A stretch of 64,000 nt of DNA, taken from NCBI GenBank assembly GCA_964479005.1, contig CAYZJA010000001.1:32001-96000 (forward strand), read 5' to 3'. A program made the position numbers and the translations under genes. This stretch comes from an uncultured Candidatus Saccharibacteria bacterium (GTDB taxonomy: Bacteria; Patescibacteriota; Minisyncoccia; UBA6257). Positions 25,679 to 50,208 of this stretch are shown here, in pieces; the stretch's first letter is position 1; the number at the start of each line of letters is the position of its first letter. Below the pieces are notes generated by a model. The model worked only from the letters and a program-made list of their open reading frames with translations, ran no database searches and was not told where the DNA came from.

Positions 25679-27088
25679 ATGCGCCTTTGGATAAAAGATA
25701 CTCCACAACATATTGATAAAGAGATAACCCTTTATGGATGGGTAGATTCCCGTAGAGATCACGGGAAGATTATTTTTATTGATTTGCGCGACAGAACAGA
25801 AAAAGTACAAGTTGTTTTTTCCCCAGACAAAAAAGAAACTTATGAATTAGGCAATAAACTGCGTCCAGAATGGGTTATAGAGATAAAGGGCGTTGTGAAG
25901 GCTCGTCCCAAATCAATGGAAAATCCCAAAATGCCAACTGGCTCCATAGAAATTGAAGCAACTGGTTTAAAAATATTAAGTGAAGCGCTTACTCCGCCAT
26001 TTGATTTATCAACTGATGGCAAGGATGTTAAAGAAGAAGTGCGTTTAAAATATAGATATTTGGATTTGCGTCGAGAACGCTTGAGTAAAAATATTGTTTA
26101 TAGGCATAAAATAATTAAGTTTATTCGCGATTTTCTTTCTGATGATGGTTTTATAGAAGTGGAAACGCCTATTTTAACTAAATCTACTCCAGAAGGAGCC
26201 CGTGATTATATTGTACCTTCCCGTCTAGATCCTGGAAAATTTTATGCTTTACCACAAAGCCCCCAACAATATAAACAACTTTTAATGGTGGCTGGGCTTG
26301 AAAGATATTTTCAAATTGCCCGTTGTTTTCGGGACGAAGATACGCGTGGCGACAGACAACCTGAATTTACCCAATTAGATTTGGAAATGGATTTTCCTAC
26401 GCAAGAGGACATTTTAAGTTTAATAGAAAATTTATTCAAGCAATTAATTGAAAAAATTTATCCTGAGAAAAAGATTAAAGAATTTCCTTTTCCGCGCATT
26501 AGCTATAAAGATGCAATTGAAAAATATAAATCAGACAAGCCTGATTTGAGAAAAGATAAAAACAATCCAAATGAATTAGCTTTTGCTTTTGTTGTTGACT
26601 TTCCTCTTTTTGAATTTAAAAAAGAAGAAAAGAAATGGGGAGCTGTTCATCATCCATTTACAAGGCCTAAATTAGAAAAAGACGAAACAGTTGAGCAGTT
26701 GATTAAAAGAATTAAAAAAGATCCAGGTAAACCATTTGCCGACCAGTATGATTTTGTTTTAAATGGTTATGAGATTGGAGGTGGTTCTTTAAGAATTCAT
26801 GAGCCAAAATTATTGCAAGCTATTTTTGAACTATTAGGTCATAAAAAAGAAGACATTGTAGAAAAATTTGGCCATTTAATAGGAGCGTTTAAATACGGAG
26901 TTCCTCCTCATGGAGGTATTGCATTGGGGCTTGATAGAATTGTAATGATTTTTGAAGATGAACCGAGTATTCGGGAAGTAATTGCTTTTCCTAAAACCGG
27001 AGACGGCAAAGATTTAATGATGAATGCTCCAGCAGAAGTGGATGAAAAGCAGTTGAAGGATCTTCACATTAAGACTTTAAAATCTTAA
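25679..27088 (+). CDS. aspS: Aspartyl-tRNA synthetase (short form without the GAD insertion)
   Basis: OB-fold N-domain, motif 2 FRDEDTRGDRQPEFTQLDLEM, motif 3 GGGSLRIH. DKPDLR runs straight into VVDFPLFE, so there is no GAD domain. Confidence 0.9.
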   Translation: MRLWIKDTPQHIDKEITLYGWVDSRRDHGKIIFIDLRDRTEKVQVVFSPDKKETYELGNKLRPEWVIEIKGVVKARPKSMENPKMPTGSIEIEATGLKILSEALTPPFDLSTDGKDVKEEVRLKYRYLDLRRERLSKNIVYRHKIIKFIRDFLSDDGFIEVETPILTKSTPEGARDYIVPSRLDPGKFYALPQSPQQYKQLLMVAGLERYFQIARCFRDEDTRGDRQPEFTQLDLEMDFPTQEDILSLIENLFKQLIEKIYPEKKIKEFPFPRISYKDAIEKYKSDKPDLRKDKNNPNELAFAFVVDFPLFEFKKEEKKWGAVHHPFTRPKLEKDETVEQLIKRIKKDPGKPFADQYDFVLNGYEIGGGSLRIHEPKLLQAIFELLGHKKEDIVEKFGHLIGAFKYGVPPHGGIALGLDRIVMIFEDEPSIREVIAFPKTGDGKDLMMNAPAEVDEKQLKDLHIKTLKS

Positions 27089-27104
27089 ACCTTTGTGCTA
27101 TAAT

Positions 27105-27258
27105 GCACTGGGTCTTGCCGGATTAAGGAACGATTCAGGACAAGTTGGTTTTCAAAGGGAGCTCAATGTCTTTTGTCCTGTTGGGCAAAAGCGCGAGCAC
27201 CCACTTTACTACTAGCTGATTCGACCTTAGTTGCGGGTAAGGCCCGTTATTTATACTT
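27105..27258 (+). ncRNA. GC-rich structured intergenic element, candidate small ncRNA of unknown class
   Basis: Local GC is well above background. Closing helix GGGUCUUGCC / GGUAAGGCCC (10 bp with G-U pairs). Internal helix CAGGACAA / UUGUCCUG. Lies between aspS and rpmB. Confidence 0.35.
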
Positions 27259-27277
27259 TTAAACCTTTTATATAATT

Positions 27278-27469
27278 ATGTCACGAGTTTGCTCAATTTG
27301 CGGAAAAAGCTATCAGAATGCCATTAAATACAAAAAAGTTCATTCAGCTTATAACCCAACTTCCCGGCATCGTCAGATGCCTAATTTGCAATGGTTTAGA
27401 ATGCCAGACGGCAAAAGAGTAAAGGCTTGCACTAAATGCCGCAAACGCCTTTCCAAAACAATCTCTTAA
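27278..27469 (+). CDS. rpmB: 50S ribosomal protein bL28
   Basis: MSRVCSICGK...PNLQ...ACTKCRK: L28 N-terminus and the PNLQ motif. Confidence 0.8.
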   Translation: MSRVCSICGKSYQNAIKYKKVHSAYNPTSRHRQMPNLQWFRMPDGKRVKACTKCRKRLSKTIS

Positions 27470-27475
27470 ACCTTT

Positions 27476-27688
27476 ATGAAAAAGGTAAAAATAGATAAAC
27501 AAAAATGCCTCGGTTGCGGAGTATGTATTAGTCTTTGCCCCGAGGTTTTTGAATTAAAGGACGGAAAATCACAAATAAAAGGAAAAGTTGATTTTAAAAA
27601 ACACAAAGATTGTATTAAAGAAGTAATTGATTCCTGCCCTGTAAATGCGATATCATCAGTCATTGCGAGCAAAGGGAAGCAATCTTAA
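27476..27688 (+). CDS. Small 4Fe-4S ferredoxin
   Basis: CLGCGVCISLCP cluster motif plus a distal CP. Confidence 0.8.
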   Translation: MKKVKIDKQKCLGCGVCISLCPEVFELKDGKSQIKGKVDFKKHKDCIKEVIDSCPVNAISSVIASKGKQS

Positions 27689-27730: not shown

Positions 27731-27807
27731 CGGGGTGTGGCCTAGTGGTTTAGGGCGCTCGCATGGGGTGCGAGAGATCTTCGCAGGTTCGAGTCCCGCC
27801 AGCCCGA
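27731..27807 (+). tRNA. tRNA-Pro (anticodon GGG)-like gene with a long variable region
   Basis: Perfect anticodon stem CTCGC/GCGAG with loop ATGGGGT; D-arm with GG; T-loop GGTTCGAGTCC. One G-G mismatch in the acceptor stem, one A-C mismatch in the T stem, and an 8-nt variable region. Overlaps the 3' end of rlmE on the opposite strand. Confidence 0.55.
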
Positions 27808-28386
27808 CAAAACAACAAATACTTCTTTACTTCTTTTCCGCGTTGCTTTGGGTCTGAACATTTTAAAGAATTTAAAAAGCGAAGATACTTTTTTAGCTAA
27901 AAAATGAACATCATTACTTTCAAAGGCTTTACAAACAAAAGAGCCTTCTTTTTTTAATAAAGGGGGAATAAAAGAAAAAGCTTTTTTGATTAATTCAAGA
28001 GAGCGTTCGCTATCAACATCTTTAATTCCAGAAGTTGCTGGAGCAAGATCAGATATAATCACATTGAATTTATCTGGAAGATTATTTTTTTTAAGCAAAT
28101 TTTGAATTTTCTCAACTTTTAGCTTAAAAATATCTTTTTGAAGGAAAATAGCTTTGGTAGAAACAGTAATTGGCTTTAAATCTACTCCCACAACTTTTCC
28201 ATTGGGTTGAATAACTTTTTGGGCGTAAAGTAACCAAGAACCTGGGAAACAACCAAGGTCCAAAACTAAGTCACCAGGTTTAAAAATATGGAATCTTTCG
28301 TCAATTTCTTTTAGTTTATAAACTGAACGGGCAGGATAGCCCTCTTTTTTTGCTTTTTTGAAATAATGGTCTTGGGATTTATACAT
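27742..28386 (-). CDS. rlmE: 23S rRNA (uridine-2'-O)-methyltransferase RlmE/FtsJ
   Basis: SAM-binding region VLDLGCFPGSWLLYA and the FtsJ fold motifs. The C-terminal ~20 codons overlap the tRNA on the other strand. Confidence 0.85.
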   Translation of the reverse strand: MYKSQDHYFKKAKKEGYPARSVYKLKEIDERFHIFKPGDLVLDLGCFPGSWLLYAQKVIQPNGKVVGVDLKPITVSTKAIFLQKDIFKLKVEKIQNLLKKNNLPDKFNVIISDLAPATSGIKDVDSERSLELIKKAFSFIPPLLKKEGSFVCKAFESNDVHFLAKKVSSLFKFFKMFRPKATRKRSKEVFVVLSGWRDSNLRRSLAPHASALNH

Positions 28387-33656: not shown

Positions 33657-33724
33657 GAGGCGAGGAGATATTGTTTTAAAAACACGCTAATCGCTATAGT
33701 TTTTTTCAACAACATCTCCTCACC
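33657..33724. repeat. Hairpin element, copy 2 (same conserved loop as 2565-2630)
   Basis: GAGGAGATATTGTT ... AACAACATCTCCTC (13/14 bp) flanks a loop TTAAAAACACGCTAATCGCTATAGTTTTTTTC that differs by 1 nt from copy 1. Confidence 0.6.
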
Positions 33725-33860
33725 TTTAAACCTTTAAACCTTAACAATATAACAATTTAAAACCATGCCCCACCGTATTTAGGTGGTTTTTATTTATGGA
33801 TTTAAAATAAATATATGAAAAATCTTGATTAGCAATAAGAATAATTAATAAGCTAAATCA

Positions 33861-34976: not shown

Positions 34977-35003
34977 TTTATAATGCTATTAAAGAAATTC
35001 AAC

Positions 35004-35030
35004 CAAAAGGTTAAAAATTAATTAAAAAAT
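35004..35030 (+). promoter_or_regulatory. Island 5' cassette motif (variant copy) directly before the ATG
   Basis: CAAAAGGTTAAAAATTAATTAAAAAAT-ATG. Confidence 0.5.
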
Positions 35031-35906
35031 ATGAAAAGAATATTTTATATTATAGGTGGGATAATTGTTTTAATTATCATTATTATCACAAGTAGTGGAG
35101 GTAAAAGGAGTGGAATAAAATCAGAAGAACTCACCGCTGGAGTCATTGTTGGGGATAAATTATTGGTTGAAGAAGAAAAAACTTATTTAGTGACAAAAGT
35201 AATAGATGGAGATACTATTACTATAGAAGGTGGTGAGGTAATTCGTTATATTGGGATTGATACTCCTGAAACTGTTCATCCTTCAAAACCAGTGGAATGT
35301 TTTGGAAAAGAAGCTTCTAGTAAAAATAAAGAGTTAGTTGATGGGAAGAGGGTAAAATTAGGAAAAGATGTTTCGGAAACAGATAGATATGGACGTCTTC
35401 TTCGTTATGTTTGGGTTGGCGATATTTTTGTAAATGATTATCTTGTAAGGCAAGGTTATGCTTATGCTTATACATATCCTCCTGATGTAAAATATTCTGA
35501 ACAATTTGTTCAAGCCCAACAAGAGGCAAGAGAAAATAATAGGGGGCTATGGGAAGGTTGTCCAGTTACATCTACAGAATATCCTACTACAACCATAATA
35601 ACTCAAGTTGTACCACCAACTACGACAACTACAATAGTAGCCCCCACTACTACAACAACCACAATAGTAGCTCCTACCACTACAACAATCACAACATTGC
35701 CACCTACGACTACTACTGTACCTCCCACTACTACCATTACTTATTTTACCGAGGAAATAATTTGTTCTTATAATGCTTATAATTGTTCTAATTTTTCTAC
35801 TCATGCCGAAGCTCAAGAAGCCTATGAATTCTGCGGTGGAGTTAGTAATGATATCCATCGACTTGATAGAGATAAAGATGGACTAGCATGCGAAAGTTTA
35901 CCTTAG
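35031..35906 (+). CDS. Secreted/membrane-anchored thermonuclease (SNase-like) with a Thr/Pro-rich linker and a C-terminal Excalibur Ca-binding domain
   Basis: N-terminal TM helix; SNase motifs GDTITIEG...IGIDTPE...RYGRLLRYVW; TTTT(I/V)(A)P repeats; DRDKDGLACE Excalibur motif. Confidence 0.85.
   Translation: MKRIFYIIGGIIVLIIIIITSSGGKRSGIKSEELTAGVIVGDKLLVEEEKTYLVTKVIDGDTITIEGGEVIRYIGIDTPETVHPSKPVECFGKEASSKNKELVDGKRVKLGKDVSETDRYGRLLRYVWVGDIFVNDYLVRQGYAYAYTYPPDVKYSEQFVQAQQEARENNRGLWEGCPVTSTEYPTTTIITQVVPPTTTTTIVAPTTTTTTIVAPTTTTITTLPPTTTTVPPTTTITYFTEEIICSYNAYNCSNFSTHAEAQEAYEFCGGVSNDIHRLDRDKDGLACESLP
35590..35740 (+). repeat. Tandem ~30-nt coding repeats (ACTACTACAACAACCACAATAGTAGC...) encoding the Thr/Pro-rich linker
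   Basis: At least two near-identical units plus degenerate copies, visible by eye. Confidence 0.6.
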
Positions 35907-35937
35907 AAGAATTTATGACTTATTCAAATTTAATTTT

Positions 35938-35971
35938 GTAAAACGTCAAAAATTAATTAAAAAATAAAATT
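35938..35971 (+). promoter_or_regulatory. Island 5' cassette motif copy
   Basis: GTAAAACGTCAAAAATTAATTAAAAAATAAAATT-ATG. Confidence 0.55.
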
Positions 35972-37807
35972 ATGGTGAAGGAAAAAGGGAAAAAGAAAGA
36001 ATATCCTAGTGAAACAGCTGTTCAGCTGATTCCTCATTTAAGCGAAGGCACATATACCACTTTTGCAAAAGCAGCAAAGGAATTGGTTATTAATGCATTC
36101 GATGCTAACGCATCGGAGATTCGTATAGATTTTGATAAAGATTTTTCAAGCCTTATATTACTTGATGACGGAGATGGGATGTCATCGAAGAAGTTCAAAA
36201 CAGAATTTCTCCGTATAGCGGGGTCAAAAAGACGGCTAGAATCTCAAAAGAGAAAATACAATAGACCGATGGTGGGAAGATTTGGAATAGGCTTTCTTTC
36301 TGTAGCGAGATTGTGTAAAACCGTTAAAGTTTATTCAAAAGAAAAAGGGAATAATTTTGGCATTGCTAGAGAAATACCCTTGGAGCATCTTTTTGATAAA
36401 GGTAATCAATTAAAGAATTTAAAGGAACAATATTATTTTTATTCTTTACCCGACTTTAGAGATGATAAAAAGAAAAGCTATACGAAAATAATCCTCAGCG
36501 GGCTCCGTCAGGATATTCAGGAAGACCTAAAGTCCGCAAAGAAATTCAAGAAAGTTTGGGGTAGGGTGGATGATCTTTGCGGAATTGAGAAATTTAAGTG
36601 GGAATTAGGCATACTCTCACCTGTGAAATATTTTAATAATTTTCCAGTGCACAGACTATCTAATAGTCAAATTGAACGAGCTAAACAAGAATTAGATAAA
36701 TTTAGTTTTAGAGTTTTTGTTAATAAAAATGAAATATTGAAACCAATTTGTTTAGGATACCATTATTTTACTAACGCTAAATGGGAATATCTTACTAAGG
36801 CTGTACCGAGAAATCATTGTGGTATTATCCCAATCATGTCTCCTCCGGGAGAAAAATTTAAATTTTATGGTTATATTTATAATCAAACTAAACAAATTCA
36901 GCCCTCTTCGCTTAGAGGTATTCTTTTGTGCATTAATCACATTGGCATAAAAGGCTACAGTAAGTCATTATTTGAATTTCCTAAAAACATAGGACCTATT
37001 CTTTCAGCAATTAGTGGAGAGATTTTTCTTGACCCTGCTTTCGAAGAAATACTGACTATTGATAAAGATGATTTTAAGGAAGACCATCCATTATTTAAGA
37101 ATTTAGCAGGTTATATTCATAATGCCATAGATGAAGTTGCTGCTAACTCTCGAAAAAGATCCAGTAGGATTAAAGCAAAAAAGAAGGAAGTTGCAAGAAT
37201 AAAAGACTTAGATCTTTCTTCGGAGGAAGTAAAACAAGCACAGAAGATTTTAGGCAAAAAAGAATTCAAACAAGAATATTTCCCGAATCCCGATATTTCA
37301 ATAAGAACAAATATCAAAAATTTAAAGACTCGAGTAAGAAATTTGGTCGGGAAGACCATAGACCAAGACGAGGCAAGCTATTTAATAGAATCTCTCGAAT
37401 GTTTTGAGGCGGATTGTTTCAGGGGGTCTATATTAATGGCATGGAATACAGGGATGTTTCGTATTCACCGAAAGATAGCAAAAAATATAGGGTTTGCTAA
37501 ATTTCAGAGCGAAATTATAAAGATGAGAACTTCATTACAAACACCACAAGCTCAAAAAAGCAGGCTGAAAAATTGTAATTGCTTAGATGATTTGAAGTAC
37601 TATAATGAAGAAATGATTTGTAGACTTTTGAAAAAAATTCAGTTAATGGACAGCATCACGGCGAAATTATTTTATGAAGTACTAATCAAGATAAGGCATT
37701 ATTGCGCACATCCTACTGGGCACAGAGCAACTGATGGAGAGGCTATTTTTATGATTCAGTCTGTCTTAGATAGAATTTTGAATAGTAATAGGTTTATTAT
37801 TAAATGA
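35972..37807 (+). CDS. GHKL (Hsp90/MORC-like) ATPase with a C-terminal HEPN-like domain
   Basis: Bergerat-fold motifs ELVINAFDA (N box), LLDDGDGM (G1), GRFGIGF (G2). C-terminal Rx4H motif IKIRHYCAHPTGH. Confidence 0.7.
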   Translation: MVKEKGKKKEYPSETAVQLIPHLSEGTYTTFAKAAKELVINAFDANASEIRIDFDKDFSSLILLDDGDGMSSKKFKTEFLRIAGSKRRLESQKRKYNRPMVGRFGIGFLSVARLCKTVKVYSKEKGNNFGIAREIPLEHLFDKGNQLKNLKEQYYFYSLPDFRDDKKKSYTKIILSGLRQDIQEDLKSAKKFKKVWGRVDDLCGIEKFKWELGILSPVKYFNNFPVHRLSNSQIERAKQELDKFSFRVFVNKNEILKPICLGYHYFTNAKWEYLTKAVPRNHCGIIPIMSPPGEKFKFYGYIYNQTKQIQPSSLRGILLCINHIGIKGYSKSLFEFPKNIGPILSAISGEIFLDPAFEEILTIDKDDFKEDHPLFKNLAGYIHNAIDEVAANSRKRSSRIKAKKKEVARIKDLDLSSEEVKQAQKILGKKEFKQEYFPNPDISIRTNIKNLKTRVRNLVGKTIDQDEASYLIESLECFEADCFRGSILMAWNTGMFRIHRKIAKNIGFAKFQSEIIKMRTSLQTPQAQKSRLKNCNCLDDLKYYNEEMICRLLKKIQLMDSITAKLFYEVLIKIRHYCAHPTGHRATDGEAIFMIQSVLDRILNSNRFIIK

Positions 37808-38940
37808 CAAAAATCCTATTAGTAGAACCAAATTTTCCTATACCACCTAAAAGTAAAAATCATAGGGATTTTTTACCTATTGGATTATTAAAACTAGCAA
37901 ACTATCACAGAGGAAAGGGGGATAAAATTAAACTTGTTAGGGGAAATTATTATTTCCCCGATTTTTATCCCAGTCAGGTAAAAATAACTTCGCTTTTTAC
38001 ATATTGGTCTAATTATGTGTGGGAAAGTGTAAAATTCTACAAAGAAAACTATCCGAAAGCCAAAGTGATAGTTGGCGGCATTTATGCATCGTTAATGCCG
38101 GAGCATTGCAAAAAATCAGGTTGCGACGAAGTATTCATTGGAGTGGATAAGAACGCTGAAAAGTATGAACCAGCCTATGATTTGGTAAATGTAGATTACC
38201 AGATAATGCATACAAGCAGAGGTTGTATTAGAAGATGCAAGTTTTGCGGCACATGGAAGATAGAGCCGGAATTCAAATATAAAAAAAGCATAAAAGACGA
38301 GATTTGTAGCAATCGAATAATCTTTTATGATAATAATCTCTTAGCCAATCCTTATATAAAAAATATTTTTGAAGAGCTAAAGAATTCTAAATATAATGGC
38401 AGGGTTGTATATTCTGAAAGTCAATGTGGCATTGATGGTAGATTGCTTACGCCAAAACTAGCGAAATTGCTAAAACAAGCGAGATTTCTGAATCCGAGAA
38501 TTGCATGGGATCATAGTTATGGTCAGCGAAAAATGATAAAAAAACAAATTGATATGTTGGTAGATGTCGGTTATCCCGTTAAAGACATCTATATTTTCAT
38601 GATCTATAATTTTGAACAAGATTATTATGAAATGCTGAATAAACTTAGGCAATGCAAAAAATGGGGTGTCCAGATTGCGGATTGTAGATATCGACCCTTG
38701 GATCAAACTTTTGATAATTATAATCCTCGAATAAGCCAGACAAATAAAGATTATTATATTCATTCTAAATGGAGTGATAGGCAAATTAAACTTTTCAGAA
38801 AGAAAGTCAGACAACAGAATATTATGATAAGACATGGGTTTGATTTTTACAGTAAAGAGTTGGAAAGATTGGGGACGAAGAAAAGAAATAAAAAAAATAG
38901 TGTCAAATCTATCCTAAATAACCAAAAGGTCAAAAATTAA
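37804..38940 (+). CDS. B12-binding-domain radical SAM enzyme, translationally coupled to the upstream GHKL-HEPN gene
   Basis: ATGA overlap with the upstream stop; N-terminal B12-binding-like segment; radical SAM cluster motif SRGCIRRCKFCG (CxxxCxxC). Confidence 0.75.
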   Translation: MTKILLVEPNFPIPPKSKNHRDFLPIGLLKLANYHRGKGDKIKLVRGNYYFPDFYPSQVKITSLFTYWSNYVWESVKFYKENYPKAKVIVGGIYASLMPEHCKKSGCDEVFIGVDKNAEKYEPAYDLVNVDYQIMHTSRGCIRRCKFCGTWKIEPEFKYKKSIKDEICSNRIIFYDNNLLANPYIKNIFEELKNSKYNGRVVYSESQCGIDGRLLTPKLAKLLKQARFLNPRIAWDHSYGQRKMIKKQIDMLVDVGYPVKDIYIFMIYNFEQDYYEMLNKLRQCKKWGVQIADCRYRPLDQTFDNYNPRISQTNKDYYIHSKWSDRQIKLFRKKVRQQNIMIRHGFDFYSKELERLGTKKRNKKNSVKSILNNQKVKN

Positions 38941-38955
38941 TTGAAAAATAAAAAT
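38923..38955 (+). promoter_or_regulatory. Island 5' cassette motif copy; its 5' half encodes the C-terminus (QKVKN*) of the radical SAM gene
   Basis: CAAAAGGTCAAAAATTAATTGAAAAATAAAAAT, followed after 24 nt by the ATG at 38980. Confidence 0.55.
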
Positions 38956-38979
38956 TAGGAATAGAAGGCGGAAATTATT

Positions 38980-40296
38980 ATGGGAAAAGAAGAAACAAAA
39001 AAAGAAGAAATGAAACCATGTCCTTTATGTGGGACAATGCTTTTATATGATAAATGGTTACAAGTAGTAGGTGTATATGAAGAACAGCAGAAATATAAAA
39101 AACAATTGGAATTAGAATTAAGCAAAGCCAAAAAGCAAGAATTAAAGCTAAAAGAAGAATATAAAAAAATTCGTCAGAAAGAAAAAGAAATACGGACTCA
39201 GTACGCTCTTAAAAAATCAAAACTTAGCCAGCAGCATAAAACGCAATTAGAAAAACTCCAAAAAAGATTTGAAAAAGAAAAACGAAAAGTGCTGAATCAG
39301 GCTAAAAAGGAAGGCATTAAAATCGGTTTTGAGAAAGAACAAGCAAGATTAAAAAAGCTCAAACAACAACAAAAGAAGATCAAAAAGCAATTAGAAAGAC
39401 AAAAACAAATAGAATTAAAACGAATTTATCGTAAAGGAATTGGAATGGGGGAAGAAAAACAGAAAGCAAGAACAGAAAAAGTAAGTCTGATGGCTGAGAG
39501 ACGTCGTAAAGAAAGGGACAAAGCAATGGAGAAAGTAAAACAACTTGAGGAAATGATGAAACAAGGTACAACACCACAGATAGAAGGGTTTAATTTTGAG
39601 AAAGAGTTTGCTAAGCAACTCAAGCAAAAATTTCCAGAGGATGACATAAAGCCAACTGGACATAAGGGGGATATTATCCATACAGTTCAAGCAAAAGAGG
39701 AGAAAATTGGAAAAATTATCTATGAGTGCAAAAAAACTAAAGAATTCGAAAACAAATTTATTGAACAAATTCGACGAGATAAAACTAGAGTAATTGCAGA
39801 TTATGGAGTAATTGTTACTTGGACCACAAAAGAGAGTAAGCAGAATTTTTGGTTGGCGGGAGATATAATTATAGTTCATCCCTATGGGGCCTTAGATATA
39901 GCAACACTTCTCCGCGAAACACTGATACAAATGTATACACTTAAGTTATCAAGGGCAGAGTTTGAGACCAAGGGTAAAGCTATTCTTAAATTTATGCAAT
40001 CTGAGGAATTTAGAACAAGAATTCAAAATTCTATTGTTAAAAGCAGAGAAGCTTATGAATCTTTAAAGAAGGAGATTACAACGCATTTTAATACTTGGGA
40101 TAAGAGAGCCAAGATATACGAAAGTATCTATAAAAACACAAATATTATTCAGCGTACCGTTCAATACGTATTACTTTATAGTAAGATTCCTGAAAATTTA
40201 CCCGAAACAAAAGGACTTCCGCCACTCCAAATATTACCCAAAAAAGAATCAAAAGAGCAAGAAAAAGAGCAAAATGAACAAAACAGACAAAAATAA
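38980..40296 (+). CDS. Coiled-coil protein with a C-terminal PD-(D/E)xK nuclease-like domain (DUF2130-like architecture)
   Basis: N-terminal CPLCG Zn-ribbon-like motif; ~200 aa of K/E/Q coiled coil; GDIIHTV...KIIYECKK gives a D...ExK motif. Confidence 0.55.
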   Translation: MGKEETKKEEMKPCPLCGTMLLYDKWLQVVGVYEEQQKYKKQLELELSKAKKQELKLKEEYKKIRQKEKEIRTQYALKKSKLSQQHKTQLEKLQKRFEKEKRKVLNQAKKEGIKIGFEKEQARLKKLKQQQKKIKKQLERQKQIELKRIYRKGIGMGEEKQKARTEKVSLMAERRRKERDKAMEKVKQLEEMMKQGTTPQIEGFNFEKEFAKQLKQKFPEDDIKPTGHKGDIIHTVQAKEEKIGKIIYECKKTKEFENKFIEQIRRDKTRVIADYGVIVTWTTKESKQNFWLAGDIIIVHPYGALDIATLLRETLIQMYTLKLSRAEFETKGKAILKFMQSEEFRTRIQNSIVKSREAYESLKKEITTHFNTWDKRAKIYESIYKNTNIIQRTVQYVLLYSKIPENLPETKGLPPLQILPKKESKEQEKEQNEQNRQK

Positions 40297-40353
40297 CCAT
40301 TTTTTAGTATAAATTATCTATTTTAAATTTGTGGATTATATAATATTTGTGCC

Positions 40354-41310
40354 ATGGATGATTTATTTTTTCAAGACCAAAAAGACTATAATGAATTTAC
40401 AGTGTTTCAGGATGAAGCAGGATGTAAAGTCTCCAATTATTTTTATCATGGGTTTCTATTTATAGATAATAGATTTGGGAGAGAGATTCTTGATAGTTTA
40501 ATAAATATCAAAAAAGATGAGAATCATAGGTATACAGAAGTCCATTTTACAGATATTAAAGCTGGTAGTAATAAAGAATATGGATATAAGACAAAAATTG
40601 CTCTTGAATGGTTGAATCTAGCAAAAGGATGGTTGTTTAATAGAAAGATTAAATTTTATATTTTAGGAATTAATAAGAATAATTTAGGAAATTTTTGGAA
40701 TAATAATTGGCGATATGAAAAGAATATTTATTTACGATTTTTTGAATTAGGACTTAAGACATCTATGGGCTGGTTTGGGAATGATAAAAGGTTGATTAAA
40801 CCATTAAGAGCATCACATTTATTTTACGAATATGGAAAATATAATGATGACAGAAAGAATAAAGTAATTTGGTTAAGTAAATTCAATTTTGGAAATTTAT
40901 TAACTAATCAAAATATACAGCCAATTTTCTCTGATGAGAAAAAACAACAAAAACAAAATCCGCTACTTGCTGAATTCTCAAATTTAGACCAATTAACAGA
41001 TCTTATACTTGGCGTGACTAAATATAGTTTTATTAACATAAACCTAAAGCATATAGGAAAGCAGGAATGCATTGTTAGCTTTATTGATATAATAGAAAAA
41101 TTTAATAATCAAAAAACCGCTTTTAATACAAACGATGATTTTTATAAGAATTTTTGTCTTAGCTTTTTTCCTAAAAATGAGATAGATAAAAAAGATTTTT
41201 TGGAAAAGACTACAGATTACTATATTAAGACTATAGATAATTTTTACCCTGATAGATTTACATATAGGCAGCAATTAGCCAAAGACAAAAATTTAACACT
41301 TAATTTTTAA
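40354..41310 (+). CDS. Hypothetical protein, possibly DUF3800-like
   Basis: N-terminal FTVFQDEAG resembles the DUF3800 DExG start. No upstream cassette motif, so it is probably co-transcribed with 38980. Confidence 0.35.
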   Translation: MDDLFFQDQKDYNEFTVFQDEAGCKVSNYFYHGFLFIDNRFGREILDSLINIKKDENHRYTEVHFTDIKAGSNKEYGYKTKIALEWLNLAKGWLFNRKIKFYILGINKNNLGNFWNNNWRYEKNIYLRFFELGLKTSMGWFGNDKRLIKPLRASHLFYEYGKYNDDRKNKVIWLSKFNFGNLLTNQNIQPIFSDEKKQQKQNPLLAEFSNLDQLTDLILGVTKYSFININLKHIGKQECIVSFIDIIEKFNNQKTAFNTNDDFYKNFCLSFFPKNEIDKKDFLEKTTDYYIKTIDNFYPDRFTYRQQLAKDKNLTLNF

Positions 41311-41323
41311 AAACTGAACTTAG

Positions 41324-41367
41324 CAAAAGGTCAAAAATGAATTGAGAAATAATTTAATTATAAAAAT
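41324..41367 (+). promoter_or_regulatory. Island 5' cassette motif copy (variant)
   Basis: GCAAAAGGTCAAAAATGAATTGAGAAATAATTTAATTATAAAAAT-ATG. Confidence 0.5.
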
Positions 41368-41958
41368 ATGCCAAGAAGAAAAACATTGCTTGATGAAATA
41401 TTTTATATATTAGAGAGAATTAGTGTTGTATATGTAATAGCATTATTTTTTATTTGGTTTTCTGACAAAGAATTATTTTTTAAATTATTAGGATGGGGAC
41501 TCGCAATATTAGGTATTTTAATCGCAATTGTAATATTTACGAAAAGATCGAAGATTCATAAACGAAGTCAATTTGATACTGATAGGGAGTTACAGAAATG
41601 GCTAGGTGATTTGAAGCATTGGGAATTTGAAAATTACATTGGAGATTTATTTAATAAATTAGGATATAAAACTCGGGTTATTGGTGGATCATATGATGAA
41701 GGAATTGACGTTATTGCTGAGAAAAACGGAATAAAACATTATATCCAATGCAAAAAATATAGTAATAGTGTTGGGGTGAAGGATGTGAGAGAATTTTATG
41801 GAGCTTTATCTGATAAATTATCTAATGATAAAGCCTTTTTTATCACCACTAATTTTTTTACTGAAGGAGCTGAAAGATTTGTCGAAGACAAACCAATTGA
41901 ATTAGTTGATGGTAATCAACTCGTTAAATACATTCGCCTTGCCGAAAAATCTAACTAA
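41368..41958 (+). CDS. Membrane-anchored Mrr-cat restriction endonuclease-like protein
   Basis: Two N-terminal TM helices; Mrr_cat core FENYIGDLF...GGSYDEGIDVIAE...IQCKKY (D/ExK). Confidence 0.7.
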   Translation: MPRRKTLLDEIFYILERISVVYVIALFFIWFSDKELFFKLLGWGLAILGILIAIVIFTKRSKIHKRSQFDTDRELQKWLGDLKHWEFENYIGDLFNKLGYKTRVIGGSYDEGIDVIAEKNGIKHYIQCKKYSNSVGVKDVREFYGALSDKLSNDKAFFITTNFFTEGAERFVEDKPIELVDGNQLVKYIRLAEKSN

Positions 41959-41995
41959 AACGTCAAAAATTAATTGAAAAATGAAAAATAAAATT
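41955..41995 (+). promoter_or_regulatory. Island 5' cassette motif copy
   Basis: CTAAAACGTCAAAAATTAATTGAAAAATGAAAAATAAAATT; the ATG is 20 nt downstream. Confidence 0.5.
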
Positions 41996-42015
41996 TAGTC
42001 CGAAGTTGGATAATT

Positions 42016-42588
42016 ATGTTTAAAAATCTTTTGCTAAAAAACAAATCATTAAAAATTTTAATACTCATTAATGCCGTTTTTTTACTTGGAGCCAGTATGT
42101 TTCCTCCAATTTTTGCTTTGTTTGTAGAAGAAATAGGGGGAAATGCCTTTACTGCAGGAAGTATTTGGGCAACCTTTGCTATTGGGACAGGATTTTTAAT
42201 GCTGATTATCAGTCGTTATGGTGACAAACTGAAAGAGAGAGAATATTTAGTAGCAGCAGGCTATATTTTTAGATGTTTGGCTTGGTTAGGTTACTTTTTT
42301 GTTAATGCGCTTTGGCAGTTATATTTCTTGCAATTAATATTGGCTTTGGGTGAATCTTTTGGAACTCCCGCGTTTCTGGGTATATATTCTGAGCATTTAG
42401 ACAAAGGAAGACATATAAGACAGTGGGGAGTTTATACTTCTTTTACTATAATTATCGGAGGAGTTGCCGCCTTTCTGGGAGGGGCAATAGTTTCTCAATT
42501 CGGATTTAGGGTTCTTTTTCTTGTAATGACCTCTTTATCTGCTTTAGCTTTTTTTCTTTTGATTATTCAGCCTCGAAAACTGCTCTAA
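42016..42588 (+). CDS. MFS-transporter C-terminal half (6 TM); possibly a truncated gene
   Basis: Hydrophobicity pattern and the GxxxG-rich helices typical of MFS TM7-12. Only a half-transporter is present. Confidence 0.5.
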   Translation: MFKNLLLKNKSLKILILINAVFLLGASMFPPIFALFVEEIGGNAFTAGSIWATFAIGTGFLMLIISRYGDKLKEREYLVAAGYIFRCLAWLGYFFVNALWQLYFLQLILALGESFGTPAFLGIYSEHLDKGRHIRQWGVYTSFTIIIGGVAAFLGGAIVSQFGFRVLFLVMTSLSALAFFLLIIQPRKLL

Positions 42589-42661
42589 GGAAAAAGTCTG
42601 TCTTTTTTGGGCCATTCTTTCCTGGGCCATCAAATTTAGTTCGAAGTTGAGAAAATTTAAC

Positions 42662-42692
42662 CAAAAGGTCAAAAATTAATTGAAAATAAAAA
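42662..42692 (+). promoter_or_regulatory. Island 5' cassette motif copy
   Basis: CAAAAGGTCAAAAATTAATTGAAAATAAAAA-ATG. Confidence 0.55.
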
Positions 42693-43019
42693 ATGATTAA
42701 AAAACATAATAAGTTAATTCGGGATAGAATTTTGGAAATTATTGAGGCAAATAAAGAGAAGTCTTATTTTCGGATTCTAAATAAAAAAGAATATATTAAA
42801 GAGATAAAGAAGAAAATATTAGAAGAAGCTAAAGAATTAATTGAAGCCAAAAGCAAAAAGGAAGTTATTAATGAAATTGTTGATATTCAAGAATTAATTG
42901 ATGTTTTGATATCTGAAAGTGGTTTAACAAAATTACAGATTCAAAAACAGCAAGAAGTAAAAAATAAAAAGCGAGGCGGATTTAAAAAGCGACTATTTTT
43001 AATAAAGACAAAAAATTAA
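42693..43019 (+). CDS. Small MazG-like/PRA-PH-like nucleotide pyrophosphohydrolase (putative)
   Basis: N-terminal KLIRDRILEII resembles MazG-like NTP-PPases. All-alpha, 108 aa. Confidence 0.45.
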   Translation: MIKKHNKLIRDRILEIIEANKEKSYFRILNKKEYIKEIKKKILEEAKELIEAKSKKEVINEIVDIQELIDVLISESGLTKLQIQKQQEVKNKKRGGFKKRLFLIKTKN

Positions 43020-43092
43020 TCCTTCGACACGGTTCAGGACAAGTTGAGAAAAATAACTCAAAATTGAGAGGATTAAGAATTTTAGAAATTTG

Positions 43093-43875
43093 ATGAAAAT
43101 TAAGTTTATTAAAATCAAAGCAAAGCAAATTTTTACTAAAACTGGCATTCCAGGGGCAAAATGGGTCTTAAATCAGTATGTAGGATGTGAACATGCTTGT
43201 CCATATTGTTATGCTAAGTTTATGGGCAGATGGCGGCCGAAAAACTATGGAAAATGGGGAAACTGGGTTGAAGTAAAAGAAAATGCTTCTGAATTAGTAA
43301 AAGGCAAGTATGTAGATTCTTGGGTATATATGAGTTCTGTTTCTGATCCATACCAACCCATTGAAAAAAAATTAAAAATAACTCGTAAAGTTTTAGAAAA
43401 TTTAGATAAAAGAATTAAATTAGCTATTCTTACTAAGTCAGATTTAGTGTTACGAGATATAGATTTATTTAAGAAGTTTAAGAATATTGAGGTTGGGTTA
43501 ACTATAAATAGTTTTGATAGTTCTCTGAAGAAGGTTTTTGAGCCGTTTTCATCAAAAAACGAGGATAGAATAAAGGCTTTGAAAGTCCTTAAAGAGAATG
43601 GAATAAGAACTTATACTTTTATTAGCCCGATAATTCCTGGACTAATAAATTTAAAAGATGTAATTAGAAAAACTAAAAATTTGACTGATTATTATTGGTT
43701 CGAAATGATTAATATGAAACTAGCTGGTAGAGAATTTATCAAGATTTTGAGAAAAGAATCTCCCGAAAGTTTAGAAGTCGTTACTAATAAAAGGAAGTTT
43801 GAAAAGTTTGTAAAAGAATGTAAAAATATTATTAATTCAGAAGATATAAAGGTTAGAGGGATAGAGATTCACTAA
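43093..43875 (+). CDS. Radical SAM protein of the SplB/DNA-photolyase-like (COG1533) type
   Basis: VGCEHACPYCYA CxxxCxxC cluster close to the N-terminus, typical of the family. Confidence 0.7.
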   Translation: MKIKFIKIKAKQIFTKTGIPGAKWVLNQYVGCEHACPYCYAKFMGRWRPKNYGKWGNWVEVKENASELVKGKYVDSWVYMSSVSDPYQPIEKKLKITRKVLENLDKRIKLAILTKSDLVLRDIDLFKKFKNIEVGLTINSFDSSLKKVFEPFSSKNEDRIKALKVLKENGIRTYTFISPIIPGLINLKDVIRKTKNLTDYYWFEMINMKLAGREFIKILRKESPESLEVVTNKRKFEKFVKECKNIINSEDIKVRGIEIH

Positions 43876-43905
43876 AGGGTCAAAAATTAATTGAAAAATA
43901 AAAAT
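43874..43905 (+). promoter_or_regulatory. Island 5' cassette motif copy
   Basis: AAAGGGTCAAAAATTAATTGAAAAATAAAAAT-ATG. Confidence 0.55.
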
Positions 43906-44358
43906 ATGGCAATAAAATGGAACAAGATCGATTTTGATTTAGTTAAACGTCTTAGAGGATTGGCTGAATTATCTTGTAATAATGGAGATTATATAGGGGC
44001 CTTTGTTCTTCAGATGCTATTTTTGGAGGGTACGTTAGTGTTCATAGTTAAGAATTTATTAAATCAAAAAAGGGTAGACAAGGAATTATCTAATAAATTT
44101 TCTCAAGGATACCCAACATTCGCTTCTCTTATGGATTATTTTTTTCTGTTGACAACGAATCACGATATATTTAATAAGTTAAGAGATGTAAATAAACGTA
44201 GAAATAAAATAATTCATAATATTTTTGAATTTGAAACTTTTGATGCTCTCCAGCAAGAATCGCGAGAACTGTATTTAGAATCGCGGAAACTAGAAGTTGA
44301 TTTAATAGGTCAATACCTTAGTAAGTTTTTGAAAAATAAAAAATTAATTGAAAAATAA
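43906..44358 (+). CDS. Hypothetical protein with a possible HEPN-like Rx4H motif
   Basis: KRRNKIIHN near the C-terminal third. Start set at the ATG that follows the motif rather than the upstream TTG. Confidence 0.35.
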   Translation: MAIKWNKIDFDLVKRLRGLAELSCNNGDYIGAFVLQMLFLEGTLVFIVKNLLNQKRVDKELSNKFSQGYPTFASLMDYFFLLTTNHDIFNKLRDVNKRRNKIIHNIFEFETFDALQQESRELYLESRKLEVDLIGQYLSKFLKNKKLIEK

Positions 44359-44362
44359 GATT

Positions 44363-44935
44363 ATGGAGAGTAAAGCTTATATTAATTTTCGCGCTCAAGT
44401 ACATAAACAAAGCATAGATGTTTTAATGCGTATTTTCGGTGATTTAATATCTAAAAATATAAAAGATGTGACTTTAATTGTTTCTTCATCTGGTGGACAA
44501 GTTCAACCAGCTCTTGATTTTTATGATTTTGCAAAAGGATTACCAATAACTATCGCCACGTATACTATTGGACAGGTTGCTTCTGCGGCTATCGTAATCT
44601 ATTGTGTAGCTGAAAAGCGATATACGCATAGCCGAAGTAAATTCCTAATTCATGGTATTCGTGGGGATGTAAAAGGTTTCTCTATTAAGGATATGAAAGA
44701 AAAGATAATGCCAAATTTAACAGATCAAAGTAATAAGATTGCGGAAATTATTGCCGAAGCAACAAAAAAGAATAAATCAGATGTTGAAAAAGATATGACC
44801 GAAGAGAAAGAATTAAGTGCAGAAAAAGCGATCAAGTATGGTTTAGTTACCGCTAGTGTCGATGATCAACCCATTAAAATGATAGGAGATCCAGTAATAA
44901 CTATTGGTGATGATCTTTTCAAAGATAAACGATAG
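44363..44935 (+). CDS. ClpP-family serine peptidase paralog
   Basis: ClpP-like blocks SSSGGQVQPALDFYDF, GQVASAAIVIY (Ser), LIHGI (His). A partial cassette motif is encoded in the last codons of the upstream gene (KKLIEK*). Confidence 0.6.
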   Translation: MESKAYINFRAQVHKQSIDVLMRIFGDLISKNIKDVTLIVSSSGGQVQPALDFYDFAKGLPITIATYTIGQVASAAIVIYCVAEKRYTHSRSKFLIHGIRGDVKGFSIKDMKEKIMPNLTDQSNKIAEIIAEATKKNKSDVEKDMTEEKELSAEKAIKYGLVTASVDDQPIKMIGDPVITIGDDLFKDKR

Positions 44936-44967
44936 AAAAGCTAAAACAAGAGTCAATTTTATTTTTA

Positions 44968-44999
44968 ACAAAAGGTCAAAAATTAATTAATAAAAAAAT
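44968..44999 (+). promoter_or_regulatory. Island 5' cassette motif copy
   Basis: ACAAAAGGTCAAAAATTAATTAATAAAAAAAT-ATG. Confidence 0.55.
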
Positions 45000-46259
45000 A
45001 TGTATAAAAAAATTATATTAATTGGAATAATATTTGTTTTGTTTGCAGGTATAGCTGTTGCTGCAGTATTGTTCCTTTTTCCTTATGAGCCAAATGAGCC
45101 ACCTCAAGCAGATAATACTGGTTCAACAGAACAAGGGATACAAGATGTAGTTAATGCAAATAATCAATTTGCTTTTGATCTTTATTCTGAATTAGATAAA
45201 TCTGAAGATGGAAATATGTTTTATTCTCCATACAGTATCTCTGCAGCTTTGGCAATGACTTATGAAGGCGCAGAAGGGCAGACAGCAGATGAAATAAAAT
45301 CAGTTTTTCATTTCCCAGAAGATAATATTTTAAGACCTAATTTTGCTGCTATTTATAATGATATTAATAAAGAAAATGGAGATTATGAGTTGAAAACCGG
45401 AAATGCTTTATGGGTTCAAAAAGATTATTCTTTTTTACAAGAATATATAAGCAGAGTTGAAAACTATTATGGCGGAAAAGCGGCAATTTTAGATTTTAAG
45501 AAAGAAACCGAAAAATCAAGGCAAACTATTAATAGTTTTATAGAAGAACAGACTAATGACAAAATTAAGGATTTAATTCCTAAAGGTTATCTTGATGAGA
45601 TGACAAGACTTGTTTTAACCAACGCAATCTATTTTAAAGGCATTTGGGAATGGGAATTTGATAAAGATGATACTCGTGACGGAATTTTTAGGATAACTCC
45701 TGATAATACTGTAGAGACTTCTATGATGCACATGAATCCTGAAGAGGCAAAATTTAATTATGCCGAAACAGAAGATTTGCAGATATTGGAATTACCATAC
45801 AAAGGTGACAAAATTTCAATGCTGATACTTTTGCCAACTGAAAATCTTGATGTAATAGAATCTTCTCTGACAACAGAAAAATTAAATGGATACAAATCTC
45901 AGATGAAAGAAACAAAACTAGATTCAATATCGCTTCCTAAATTTGAATTTGACACAAAATATTTTATGAAAGATACTTTGATTTCTTTAGGGATGCCAAC
46001 AGCTTTTTCAGAAAATGCTGATTTTTCTGGAATGACTGGCAAAAAGGATTTATTCATTAGTCATGTTATTCATCAAGCGTATGTTGGTGTTGACGAAGAG
46101 GGAACAGAAGCAGCTGCTGCAACTGCTGTGGTTATGACGATGTCAGCAGTTCTGCAAAGAAAAGTATTCAATGCGGATCATCCATTTATATTTCTAATAC
46201 AAGAGAAAGACACTGGAAATATTTTATTCTTCGGCAGAGTAGTTGATCCAACAAAATAA
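45000..46259 (+). CDS. Serpin (serine protease inhibitor) with an N-terminal signal/anchor
   Basis: FSPYSISAALAMTYEGAEG, NAIYFKGIWEWEFD, hinge EEGTEAAAATAVVM, C-terminal HPFIFLI. Confidence 0.9.
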   Translation: MYKKIILIGIIFVLFAGIAVAAVLFLFPYEPNEPPQADNTGSTEQGIQDVVNANNQFAFDLYSELDKSEDGNMFYSPYSISAALAMTYEGAEGQTADEIKSVFHFPEDNILRPNFAAIYNDINKENGDYELKTGNALWVQKDYSFLQEYISRVENYYGGKAAILDFKKETEKSRQTINSFIEEQTNDKIKDLIPKGYLDEMTRLVLTNAIYFKGIWEWEFDKDDTRDGIFRITPDNTVETSMMHMNPEEAKFNYAETEDLQILELPYKGDKISMLILLPTENLDVIESSLTTEKLNGYKSQMKETKLDSISLPKFEFDTKYFMKDTLISLGMPTAFSENADFSGMTGKKDLFISHVIHQAYVGVDEEGTEAAAATAVVMTMSAVLQRKVFNADHPFIFLIQEKDTGNILFFGRVVDPTK

Positions 46260-46340
46260 AGGAGAACTGTTCTCCTTTATTTTGTTAAGCAGAAATTAAT
46301 CCTTCGGCAAACTCAGGACAAATTAAAAAATAGAAAATAA

Positions 46341-46856
46341 ATGGTTAAATTAAATTTTGTTTATAAAAAAGAAGAATTATTGAAGATCTATAAAGCAGGA
46401 TGTGATGTCTGGAAAGTTCCTTTTGATTTAAAAGATTTTTTGCAAAACTATCCTGAAGGAGACGATACAAATATTCCTTTCTTTAGGGGGATGAATCGTG
46501 CTCATTTTGTTGAGCTTTGGAAAGAAAAAGAAGAGAATGTGATTACTGAGATTGGAAAGGTTTATAAGCCCTTCTCTGAAGGGGAAATTATTATTGGTTT
46601 ATTTCCGAGTAGAGATATTTTTTGGAAATTTGAGACACAGAAAAGTTATGCTATTCTGGGTCCTGATAAGAAGGCTTTAGTAGCTTTAGTTCCTGGTCCT
46701 GATCGTTTTAGATATTTAATTCATGAACTTTTTCATGCTAATAATGATTTGAGAATGGAAACAGGTTTAACCCCTATTAAAAAGCATCAATGGTTTGATG
46801 ATCAATCCCTGGAGATCGCAAAGAAATATTTTAAAATTTCTTTTAATAAATTATAA
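46341..46856 (+). CDS. Hypothetical small protein with an HExxH motif (putative Zn-metallopeptidase)
   Basis: IHELFHA. The upstream region carries the TCAGGACAAATT repeat variant. Confidence 0.4.
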   Translation: MVKLNFVYKKEELLKIYKAGCDVWKVPFDLKDFLQNYPEGDDTNIPFFRGMNRAHFVELWKEKEENVITEIGKVYKPFSEGEIIIGLFPSRDIFWKFETQKSYAILGPDKKALVALVPGPDRFRYLIHELFHANNDLRMETGLTPIKKHQWFDDQSLEIAKKYFKISFNKL

Positions 46857-46880
46857 AATCCTATCAAAGTCGAATTTCGT

Positions 46881-46913
46881 AAAAGGTCAAAAAAATAATT
46901 AAAAATAAGATTT
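46881..46913 (+). promoter_or_regulatory. Island 5' cassette motif copy
   Basis: AAAAGGTCAAAAAAATAATTAAAAATAAGATTT-ATG. Confidence 0.55.
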
Positions 46914-47516
46914 ATGAAAAAAGTTATTATAATTCACGGTTGGGGCGGTTCTTCAGACGAACCTTTACTTAGGTGGTTGAAATCAGAATTAGAGAAAAAC
47001 GATTTTGAGGTTATTGTGCCGGAAATGCCCAATCCAGAAAAGCCAAATATTGAAACTTGGGTTTTAAAACTCAAGGAATTAATCGAAATACCAAATAAAG
47101 ATACAATATTGGTAGGACATTCTATTGGTTGTCAAACAATATTGAGATATTTAGAGAAATTACATCCTACATCAAGAATCGGTGGCGTTGTATTTATTGC
47201 GCCGTGGCTTACTTTGTCAAATTTAAAAAATGATGAGGAATGGCGAGTCGCTGGCCCTTGGCTCAATACGCCAATTAGAGAAATAAATATTATAAAACAC
47301 ATTCCGAAAATAACGGCTATTTTTTCAGATAACGATCCTTATGTGCCGAGCGAAAATATAGAGATGTTTAAGAGAAAGTTTAATGACTACATTAAAGTCA
47401 TTGTTGAACACAAAAAAGGGCATTTTACTGCTGATGATGGTGTAGAAAAATTAGAATCTGCCCTGGATGCTATATTTGAGGTAAATAATTATATATGGGA
47501 AAAATTAAAATTGTAG
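46914..47516 (+). CDS. RBBP9/YdeN-family alpha/beta serine hydrolase
   Basis: IIIHGWGGSSDEP ... VGHSIGCQ (GxSxG). Confidence 0.7.
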   Translation: MKKVIIIHGWGGSSDEPLLRWLKSELEKNDFEVIVPEMPNPEKPNIETWVLKLKELIEIPNKDTILVGHSIGCQTILRYLEKLHPTSRIGGVVFIAPWLTLSNLKNDEEWRVAGPWLNTPIREINIIKHIPKITAIFSDNDPYVPSENIEMFKRKFNDYIKVIVEHKKGHFTADDGVEKLESALDAIFEVNNYIWEKLKL

Positions 47517-47550
47517 AAAATTATAAAATTAGAATAAAAATTTAAACTTC

Positions 47551-47580
47551 AAAAGATCAAAAATTAATTAAGAAAAATTT
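47551..47580 (+). promoter_or_regulatory. Island 5' cassette motif copy
   Basis: AAAAGATCAAAAATTAATTAAGAAAAATTT-ATG. Confidence 0.55.
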
Positions 47581-48441: not shown

Positions 48442-48462
48442 CTAATTGAAGTTTAATTTCGT

Positions 48463-48492
48463 AAAAGGTCAAAAATTAATTGGGAATAAAAA
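48463..48492 (+). promoter_or_regulatory. Island 5' cassette motif copy
   Basis: TAAAAGGTCAAAAATTAATTGGGAATAAAAA-ATG. Confidence 0.55.
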
Positions 48493-49485: not shown

Positions 49486-49491
49486 CGAAAC

Positions 49492-50186: not shown

Positions 50187-50208
50187 GAATTAATTGGGAA
50201 ATAAAAAT

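Follow-up and report, generated by a model that had tools for sequence, protein, structure and literature searches.

6S RNA is a global transcription regulator. 6S RNAs fold into a rod in which a central bubble lies between a closing stem and an apical stem; the 3' strand of the bubble holds a '-10-like' region, and product RNA is started in the 5' strand of the bubble and copied from the 5' strand of the helix next to it; in the E. coli type, the freed 3' strand of that helix and the 3' strand of the bubble then form a hairpin (PMC8876501, PMC9670815, PMC8414754). The length of 6S RNA is given as 160–200 nt (PMC8414754), product-RNA synthesis on 6S-1 is initiated with GTP, and the condensed genome of Aquifex has kept a 6S RNA (PMC8876501). 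The actinobacterial RNA Ms1, which was found via synteny, has a rod-like, 6S-related structure and binds the RNA polymerase core, not the holoenzyme (PMC9130861). Full-text literature searches returned no paper in which 6S RNA was brought together with Patescibacteria or the candidate phyla radiation. We describe here a segment that is likely to be a compact 6S RNA (ssrS) gene, about 140 nt in length, of a Patescibacteria (Parcubacteria-type) bacterium.

The segment was found in a 64,000-nt stretch of DNA, which was analysed as a whole and is called the window below. The AspRS protein encoded in the window placed the organism among Parcubacteria-type MAGs of the Patescibacteria, with 66% identity for the best full-length match. 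The original prediction had drawn attention to a GC-rich, strongly structured stretch between aspS and rpmB (ribosomal protein L28), and the results bore out the composition, the structure and the location (Table 1). The GC content at 27110–27250 was 48.9%, as compared with 32.3% for the whole window, and the segment was a local GC peak whose value was equalled by only 0.13% of 141-nt windows, mostly over the nearby tRNA-Pro gene. The fold of the plus strand was a single long rod with -59 kcal/mol (z = -5.0 to -5.6; none of 200 shuffles was as good), consisting in the window of an interrupted closing stem of 26 bp, an apical arm and, between the two, a central loop of 18 + 13 nt; the minus strand of the segment was unremarkable (z = -1.9). 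Minimum-energy (MFE) folds across six lineages gave z-scores of -4 to -6.

Table 1. Coordinates of the RNA segment, its parts, its predicted transcription signals and the neighbouring genes in the window.
Feature	Position	Strand	Details
aspS	25679–27088		Class II Asp/Asn-type synthetase, Pfam E 1e-118
-35-like hexamer TTTAAA	27076–27081	+	Promoter scan: TTTAAA-17-TATAAT, 10/12 matches, TG before the -10
Extended -10 element TGCTATAAT	27096–27104	+	Read from the sequence; 5 nt upstream of the rod's first G
GC-rich structured segment	27110–~27252	+	~140 nt, between aspS and rpmB
Closing stem, 5' strand	27110–27138	+	P1 27110–27119, P2 27121–27128, P3 CGA-U-UCAG 27131–27138; MFE fold
P1, 10-bp helix GGGUCUUGCC/GGUAAGGCCC	27110–27119 / 27236–27245	+	Covariation
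Central loop, 5' strand	27139–27156	+	18 nt, GACAAGUUGGUUUUCAAA
Apical arm	27157–27202	+	P4, small internal loop, apical hairpin
P4, GGG-A-GCUC/GAGC-A-CCC	27157–27164 / 27195–27202	+	A/A mismatch after the third pair
Apical hairpin CUUUUGUCC-UGUU-GGGCAAAAG	27170–27191	+	Covaries
Central loop, 3' strand	27203–27215	+	13 nt, ACUUUACUACUAG; starts with conserved A-C-Y-U after CCC
Closing stem, 3' strand	27216–27245	+	CUGA-U-UCG 27216–27223, CCUUAGUU 27225–27232, GGUAAGGCCC 27236–27245; MFE fold, covariation
U-rich tail GUUAUUUAUACUUUU	27246–27260	+	After the GC-rich rod base; terminator-like site by scan
rpmB (ribosomal protein L28)	27278–27469		Downstream neighbour of the RNA

Relatives were compared as loci on short genome pieces, which are designated by L numbers. 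When 80 species-representative aspS loci were searched with nhmmer, there was neither a sequence match to the element nor a GC peak; when metagenomes were scanned with the 199 C-terminal residues of the protein AspRS, a graded series of relatives (94% to 53% identity) was obtained, and nhmmer found the element downstream of aspS in 25 metagenome loci. These comprised group A, about 90% identical to the window copy, and group B, about 65% identical. A covariance model (R1) detected distant copies in L135, L013, L018 and L041, and a model rebuilt from these finds (R2) added L153, L122 and L124; L041 and L260–L268 were absent from the training sets, and R2 scored L041 at 38 bits. Once a covariance model existed, 3 of the 80 species-representative aspS loci were seen to hold the RNA. 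The ten L28 homologs from a word-index search gave two new group A relatives with the RNA and, at 55% identity, loci without it, and an exact search with the L28 protein returned only the source organism, with identical sequence. As the distant copies usually followed ndk, five ndk proteins, assigned by their NCBI record names to Wolfe-, Azam-, Colwell-, Levy- and Kaiserbacteria, were taken as anchors. The RNA was present in all five of these loci, 22–902 nt past ndk and with scores of 29–76 bits; aspS is thus a poor anchor for the RNA and ndk a better one. Since Levybacteria belong to the Microgenomates-type branch, the family spans much of the phylum. Altogether the RNA was found in 45 loci, near-identical contigs counted, and within the window the models detected a single copy. 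A negative control of 734 kb of viral DNA, unrelated and preselected for both conserved 9-mers, gave no model match; pattern scans of viral contigs with the two 9-mers gave 0, 44 and 43 matches, all by chance, and the model scored none of them.

The gene for the ~200-aa nucleoside diphosphate kinase, ndk, adjoins the RNA in most lineages (L013, L103–L105, L124, L153, L260–L268), and the RNA usually starts 22–112 nt past it (about 760–900 nt in L041, L135 and L264). The order is RNA-rpmB-ndk in L086–L096 and L162. The arrangement aspS-ndk-RNA-rpmB looks like the ancestral one.

Comparison of these loci showed that the rod is conserved in structure, with abundant compensatory changes. Eighteen sequences placed on the MFE structure of the window were 94% paired, as compared with 35–54% when the 3' partners were slid, and 10 pairs had changes on both sides. 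With 26 distinct sequences, 92.5% of the cells were paired (38–53% in the slid controls), 47 of the 49 pairs showed compensatory changes, and none of 500 shuffles was as good; since the alignment was model-fitted and the sequences are related, these counts overstate independence and are generous, although the signal is still far beyond the controls. In P1 and in P2 + P3, every pair had compensatory changes and 91–95% of the cells were paired in the 26 sequences, and such changes were also found in P4 and the apical hairpin. RNAalifold independently recovered the closing helix, GGG-A-GCUC/GAGC-A-CCC and the apical hairpin.

The 10-bp helix GGGUCUUGCC/GGUAAGGCCC, which the original prediction had proposed to close the element, is thus the base of the rod, and its pairing is kept in relatives via compensatory changes. 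The internal 8-bp helix CAGGACAA/UUGUCCUG proposed along with it fared differently: its strands are complementary in the window, but it showed no compensatory change, four of its eight pairs were lost in group B, and it did no better than shuffles. It also lies outside the minimum-energy fold and competes with the covarying apical hairpin CUUUUGUCC/GGGCAAAAG, within which the G-to-A change that breaks it is compensated. We therefore rejected this helix as part of the structure. A T-loop-like hairpin in the 3' strand, AGCUGA-UUCGACC-UUAGUU, is possible in group A; it is not kept in group B and was rejected as well.

The common plan of the family is a closing stem, an asymmetric central loop (17–18 nt / 12–13 nt) and an apical stem-loop, with the pattern GGG-N-NNNC, a variable apical arm and GNNN-N-CCC. 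The lengths of the loops are conserved while their sequences drift: the 5' loop measured 17–18 nt in 14 of 15 lineages and varied in sequence after starting with R-W-C-R-A-R, the third-position C (C27141 in the window) being present in 14 of the 15 lineages tabulated, and the 3' loop was 12–13 nt long in all lineages and started with AC(C/U)U. Within the central loop, a mini-helix of 3 bp between AGU (27143–27145) and ACU (27211–27213) showed a G-C/A-U exchange; only 79% of it was paired overall. The total length ranged from 125 to 165 nt. In L041 (5845–6001), L122 (3307–3472) and L124 (2780–2937), the apical arm is expanded by 34–55 nt, and these RNAs, of 155–165 nt, are nearer to the canonical 6S length.

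We then considered whether the element has transcription signals of its own. In the window, the predicted transcription start is G 27110/27111, about 6–7 nt past the extended -10 element. The homolog in L153 has the promoter TTGACT-17-TGCTATAAT, a TGnTATAAT-like box was found 5–8 nt before the rod in nearly all homologs, distant ones included, and in groups A and B the TGnTATAAT box lay at a constant distance in every case. At the other end, the U-rich tail is a probable intrinsic termination region, so that the 3' end of the RNA would lie at about 27250–27260; group B homologs have CCCC-UCUUUUUU at the 3' end, distant homologs have a separate hairpin and U-run terminator, and wherever the 3' flank was readable, nearly every homolog ended in one of these two ways, rod base plus U-run or separate hairpin terminator. 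A conserved promoter upstream and a terminator downstream argue for an independent gene and not for a leader or a 3' UTR. Thus, the element is very probably an independent, conserved ncRNA gene with predicted transcription signals of its own, as the original prediction of a stand-alone structured ncRNA had proposed.

The original prediction had not been able to assign the element to 6S RNA by eye; judged by the comparative data, it probably belongs there. Rfam 15 at gathering thresholds found only the tRNA-Pro in the whole window, in agreement with ARAGORN, and permissive searches (E <= 10) with 401-nt and 151-nt queries around the element gave no overlapping family; riboswitch, T-box, tmRNA and RNase P models (Rfam, ARAGORN) did not match at the element. 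The 6S model RF00013, which gave 139.8 bits with the control E. coli ssrS, did not match L013, even at E <= 10, nor five other homologs. With the 125-nt, Wolfebacteria-type family member L260, RF00013 gave a full-length match of 23 bits and E 0.0027 (corrected for all 4227 families), the sole match among these families, and the alignment had the loop and the core in register. The link between L260 and the window copy is R2, which scored L260 at 68.8 bits and had been trained without it. The score of 23 bits is the best obtained with RF00013 for the family and far under the RF00013 gathering score of 46.4 bits, and since RF00013 fails to detect the window copy, the latter lies outside the curated cut-off of that model.

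The likeness was also seen in the consensus sequences. The RF00013 consensus reads ...cccCuGAgCC-gAaaauuuuuauaaua-GGGagccc ... gggcaCCC-ACCUggaAcagCa-GGuUCaAggg..., with loops of 16–17 and 13 nt, a single unpaired position behind the third pair on each strand, and a core by the loop of GGGagccc ... gggcaCCCACCUgg, in which CCC is followed by ACCUgg. The core of the family is GGGAGCUC (GGGAGCCC in L099) ... GAGCACCC-AC(C/U)U; in its loop-side form, GGGAGCUC...GAGCACCCAC(C/U)U, it matches the 6S consensus core and loop sizes, and the position of the mismatch in P4 is identical. A sequence-only profile of the 26 sequences matched the RF00013 consensus with 12.0 bits, as compared with 5.4 bits for the best of 2000 shuffles, and put GGGAGCCC and GGGCACCCACCTGG in register. 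The rod fold kept by covariation is a 6S feature, too.

Like the predicted genes of the family, E. coli 6S is an independent small RNA gene with a rod-like fold, whose apical stem opens with GGG-N-... and closes with ...-N-CCC followed by ACCU. The two have a 5' loop of 16–18 nt and a 3' loop of 12–13 nt in common, which by our own count are G42–A58 and A131–G143 in E. coli; we take A131 and U135 to be the mimics of -11 and -7. The third nucleotide of the 5' loop is a conserved pyrimidine, U44 at the product-RNA start in E. coli (PMC9670815) and a conserved C in the family. The family differs from 6S of the E. coli type in its length (125–165 nt vs about 180–200 nt), in its neighbourhood (ndk/aspS/rpmB vs ygfA) and in the covarying 3-bp helix within the central loop. 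As regards length, truncated 6S-1 of 78–82 nt still binds and releases polymerase in vitro (PMC8876501), so a natural version of 140 nt is plausible. RNAs of the 6S-1 type are, like those of the window's clade, without a long 3'-loop hairpin, but no convincing counterpart of their 'central bubble collapse helix' was found in the window's clade when such a pairing was sought there, and there was no sequence similarity outside the core. Lineage-specific models such as 6S-Flavo (Rfam RF01685) are a precedent for 6S RNAs of a phylum that go unrecognised by RF00013 and call for a covariance model of their own. The 6S-Flavo model did not match the element in the Rfam scans, permissive ones included, and the family has its own consensus. 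Ms1, about 300 nt long, is rod-like as well but does not have the GGG/CCCACCU core common to the family and RF00013.

A release switch of the 6S kind was looked for by blocking the presumed template in silico. Under this condition, most lineages outside groups A and B paired the 3' loop (CCUGGnn) with the 3' strand of the adjacent helix (nnCCGGG). When that segment was folded by itself, 10 of the 11 lineages that belong to neither group A nor group B gave a hairpin of 6–7 bp, with -7 to -11 kcal/mol and z-scores of -2 to -5. This hairpin is mutually exclusive with the helix UUCCGG/CCGGGA, and its topology is that of the release hairpin in E. coli (PMC8876501, PMC9670815). Three-way covariation was found in L262 (UUUUGG/CCAAAA/CUUGGCG) and L265 (CCUUAG/CUAAGG/CUUAGCU); where the shared strand changes, both partners change, suggesting selection on both pairings, as would be expected from the release cycle of 6S. 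No convincing release hairpin was found in groups A and B, the window copy (0.0 kcal/mol) included, and part of the central loop of the window's clade can be zipped by the 3-bp helix.

By analogy with the described systems, the rod would mimic an open promoter and occupy the sigma-70/sigma-A holoenzyme, thereby damping housekeeping transcription, with the apical arm as a stand-in for upstream DNA and the 3' loop strand (A-C-Y-U...), which lies at the '-10-like' place of E. coli, as a putative mimic of the -10 non-template strand (PMC8876501, PMC9670815). The 5' strand of the closing stem would then serve both as 'downstream duplex' and as template for the product RNA. On the return of NTPs, polymerase may start at C27141 and copy a short product RNA, predicted to begin 5'-GUCCUGAAUCGUUCC... 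(GUCCUGAAUCG... as predicted from the template); the conservation of the template C leads us to predict a product RNA that begins with G. Its synthesis would unzip the adjacent helix and free the enzyme, and in most lineages the freed 3' strand would pair with the 3' loop to give a release hairpin as in E. coli, while the window's clade would have to do without this hairpin. Polymerase binding, product-RNA synthesis from C27141 and release are thus inferred for the family.

The gene context speaks against the possibility that the element is a cis-acting leader of rpmB, that is, an autoregulatory site for L28 in which the rod and U-tract act as an attenuator. The window, most loci of groups A and B (with about 250–300 nt in L099–L101 and L123) and L153 have rpmB on the same strand 20–70 nt downstream, and the window has little room for a separate rpmB promoter. 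In L013, however, rpmB lies beyond a tRNA gene and runs towards the RNA from the opposite strand, in L153 there is a hairpin + U-run terminator and then a TTGACT promoter between the RNA and rpmB, and no rpmB was found downstream in L122, L124, L041 or L260–L268, where the next genes of the last set are those for adenine glycosylase (Pfam Adenine_glyco), an M50 peptidase, RecO and a DUF2238 protein. The rpmB loci L163–L170 of other relatives are without the RNA, and there was no match to a ribosomal-leader family in Rfam. We rejected the leader on the contexts in L013, L153 and L260–L268, and regard it as very unlikely. A divergent SRP (4.5S) RNA, or a universal RNA of another kind such as RNase P RNA or tmRNA, is an extremely improbable identity for the element: none of these was matched in Rfam at E <= 10 or by ARAGORN, and although a rod-like hairpin of roughly SRP size and a housekeeping-type gene with a strong promoter would suit an SRP RNA, the apical loop is variable (UGUU, UUG, GUG) and the length of the arm differs by up to 55 nt, which is incompatible with a conserved SRP domain IV, and the conserved nucleotides are at the central loop, not at the apex.

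Another reading is a conserved, Patescibacteria-specific small RNA with another job, e.g. as a scaffold, a protein sponge or a base-pairing regulator, which would resemble 6S in shape only and whose mutually exclusive helices would serve another switch. Such an RNA would account for the failure of the Rfam 6S model with the window copy, the short length and the partly paired central loop; the invariant CGAUUCAGRACAAG and CUGA(A)UUCGACCUUA of groups A and B could be binding sites, and the 5' strand UUCCGGAUCAA is single-stranded in some MFE folds and seed-like. The likeness to 6S nevertheless goes beyond shape, since the RF00013 nucleotides, the mismatch position and the loop sizes are all matched, and both the significant sub-threshold RF00013 match and the profile match that beat 2000 shuffles speak against another job, which we therefore consider unlikely. 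There is a small chance that the family is a distinct minimal class of RNA-polymerase-directed RNA: with its release hairpin lost and its central loop partly zipped, the RNA of the window's clade might use a release route unlike those of E. coli and Bacillus, be a non-releasable polymerase sponge suited to epibiotic life or, more radically, have acquired a partner that is not polymerase. A compact 6S RNA is the explanation that we consider probable.

A few further repeats and gene arrangements were observed in the window. According to the original prediction, part of the element recurs elsewhere: there is indeed an exact copy of the 14-mer TTCAGGACAAGTTG at 43033 and a variant with 11/14 matches at 46312, but the implied link with the RNA did not hold. 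The recurrences belong to a 31-nt intergenic motif, TTAATCCTTCGRCA-N4-TCAGGACAA (TTAATCCTTCGRCA-N4-TCAGGACAARTT at 43016–43046 and 46296–46325), with which the 6S-like RNA has the exact 14-mer in common. The motif was absent from all 268 related loci, the RNA models do not see its copies, and neither stretch was markedly structured (43008–43080, z -2.25; 46285–46345, z +0.23). With a single model match in the window, weak structure and no loci with the motif, we rejected the recurrences as copies or targets of the RNA and treated them as unrelated to it; we estimate that 64 kb should contain by chance about 0.05 exact 14-mers in common with some part of a 140-nt element, which is borderline.

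Another motif, AAAAGGTCAAAAATTAATTGAAAAATAAAA, has at least 13 intergenic copies within 35000–54000 of the window, just before the start codons of consecutive plus-strand genes (e.g. at 35941, 38925, 41326, 41958, 42664, 43875, 44971, 47552, 48464, 49493 and 50546), and looks like a common promoter or translation-initiation cassette of one gene cluster. Two 70-nt stretches 31 kb apart (2564–2633 and 33658–33727) are 93% identical, with hairpin-like ends AGGCGAGGAGA...TCTCCTCGCCTTT, and may represent a terminator present twice or the two borders of an inserted segment. Three copies of the sequence TAAACCTTT fall within 400 nt, one before the RNA promoter (27088–27096), one 9 nt before the rpmB ATG (27261–27269) and one directly before the ATG of a ferredoxin gene (27468–27476). 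No Shine-Dalgarno-like sequence was visible before rpmB or the ferredoxin gene. The gene for tRNA-Pro(GGG) (27731–27808, plus strand) overlaps the last ~65 nt of an FtsJ-like methyltransferase ORF (27742–28386, minus strand), whose Pfam match stops about 20 residues before the stop of the ORF.

The segment thus probably encodes the 6S RNA of its organism, in a shortened form that is typical of the ultra-small Patescibacteria (CPR) and that the standard Rfam model does not recognise. Because the current model misses the family, 6S genes in such genomes are probably unannotated; the alignment could seed a dedicated covariance model, and the linkage of ndk and 6S offers a simple route to more copies. 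At 125–140 nt, these RNAs would rank among the shortest natural 6S RNAs and would help to define the minimal features of a promoter mimic, and their small size would make them good targets for structural work. If bacteria with genomes of about 0.5–1 Mb keep 6S RNA, growth-phase control of the polymerase would be part of the minimal regulatory kit.
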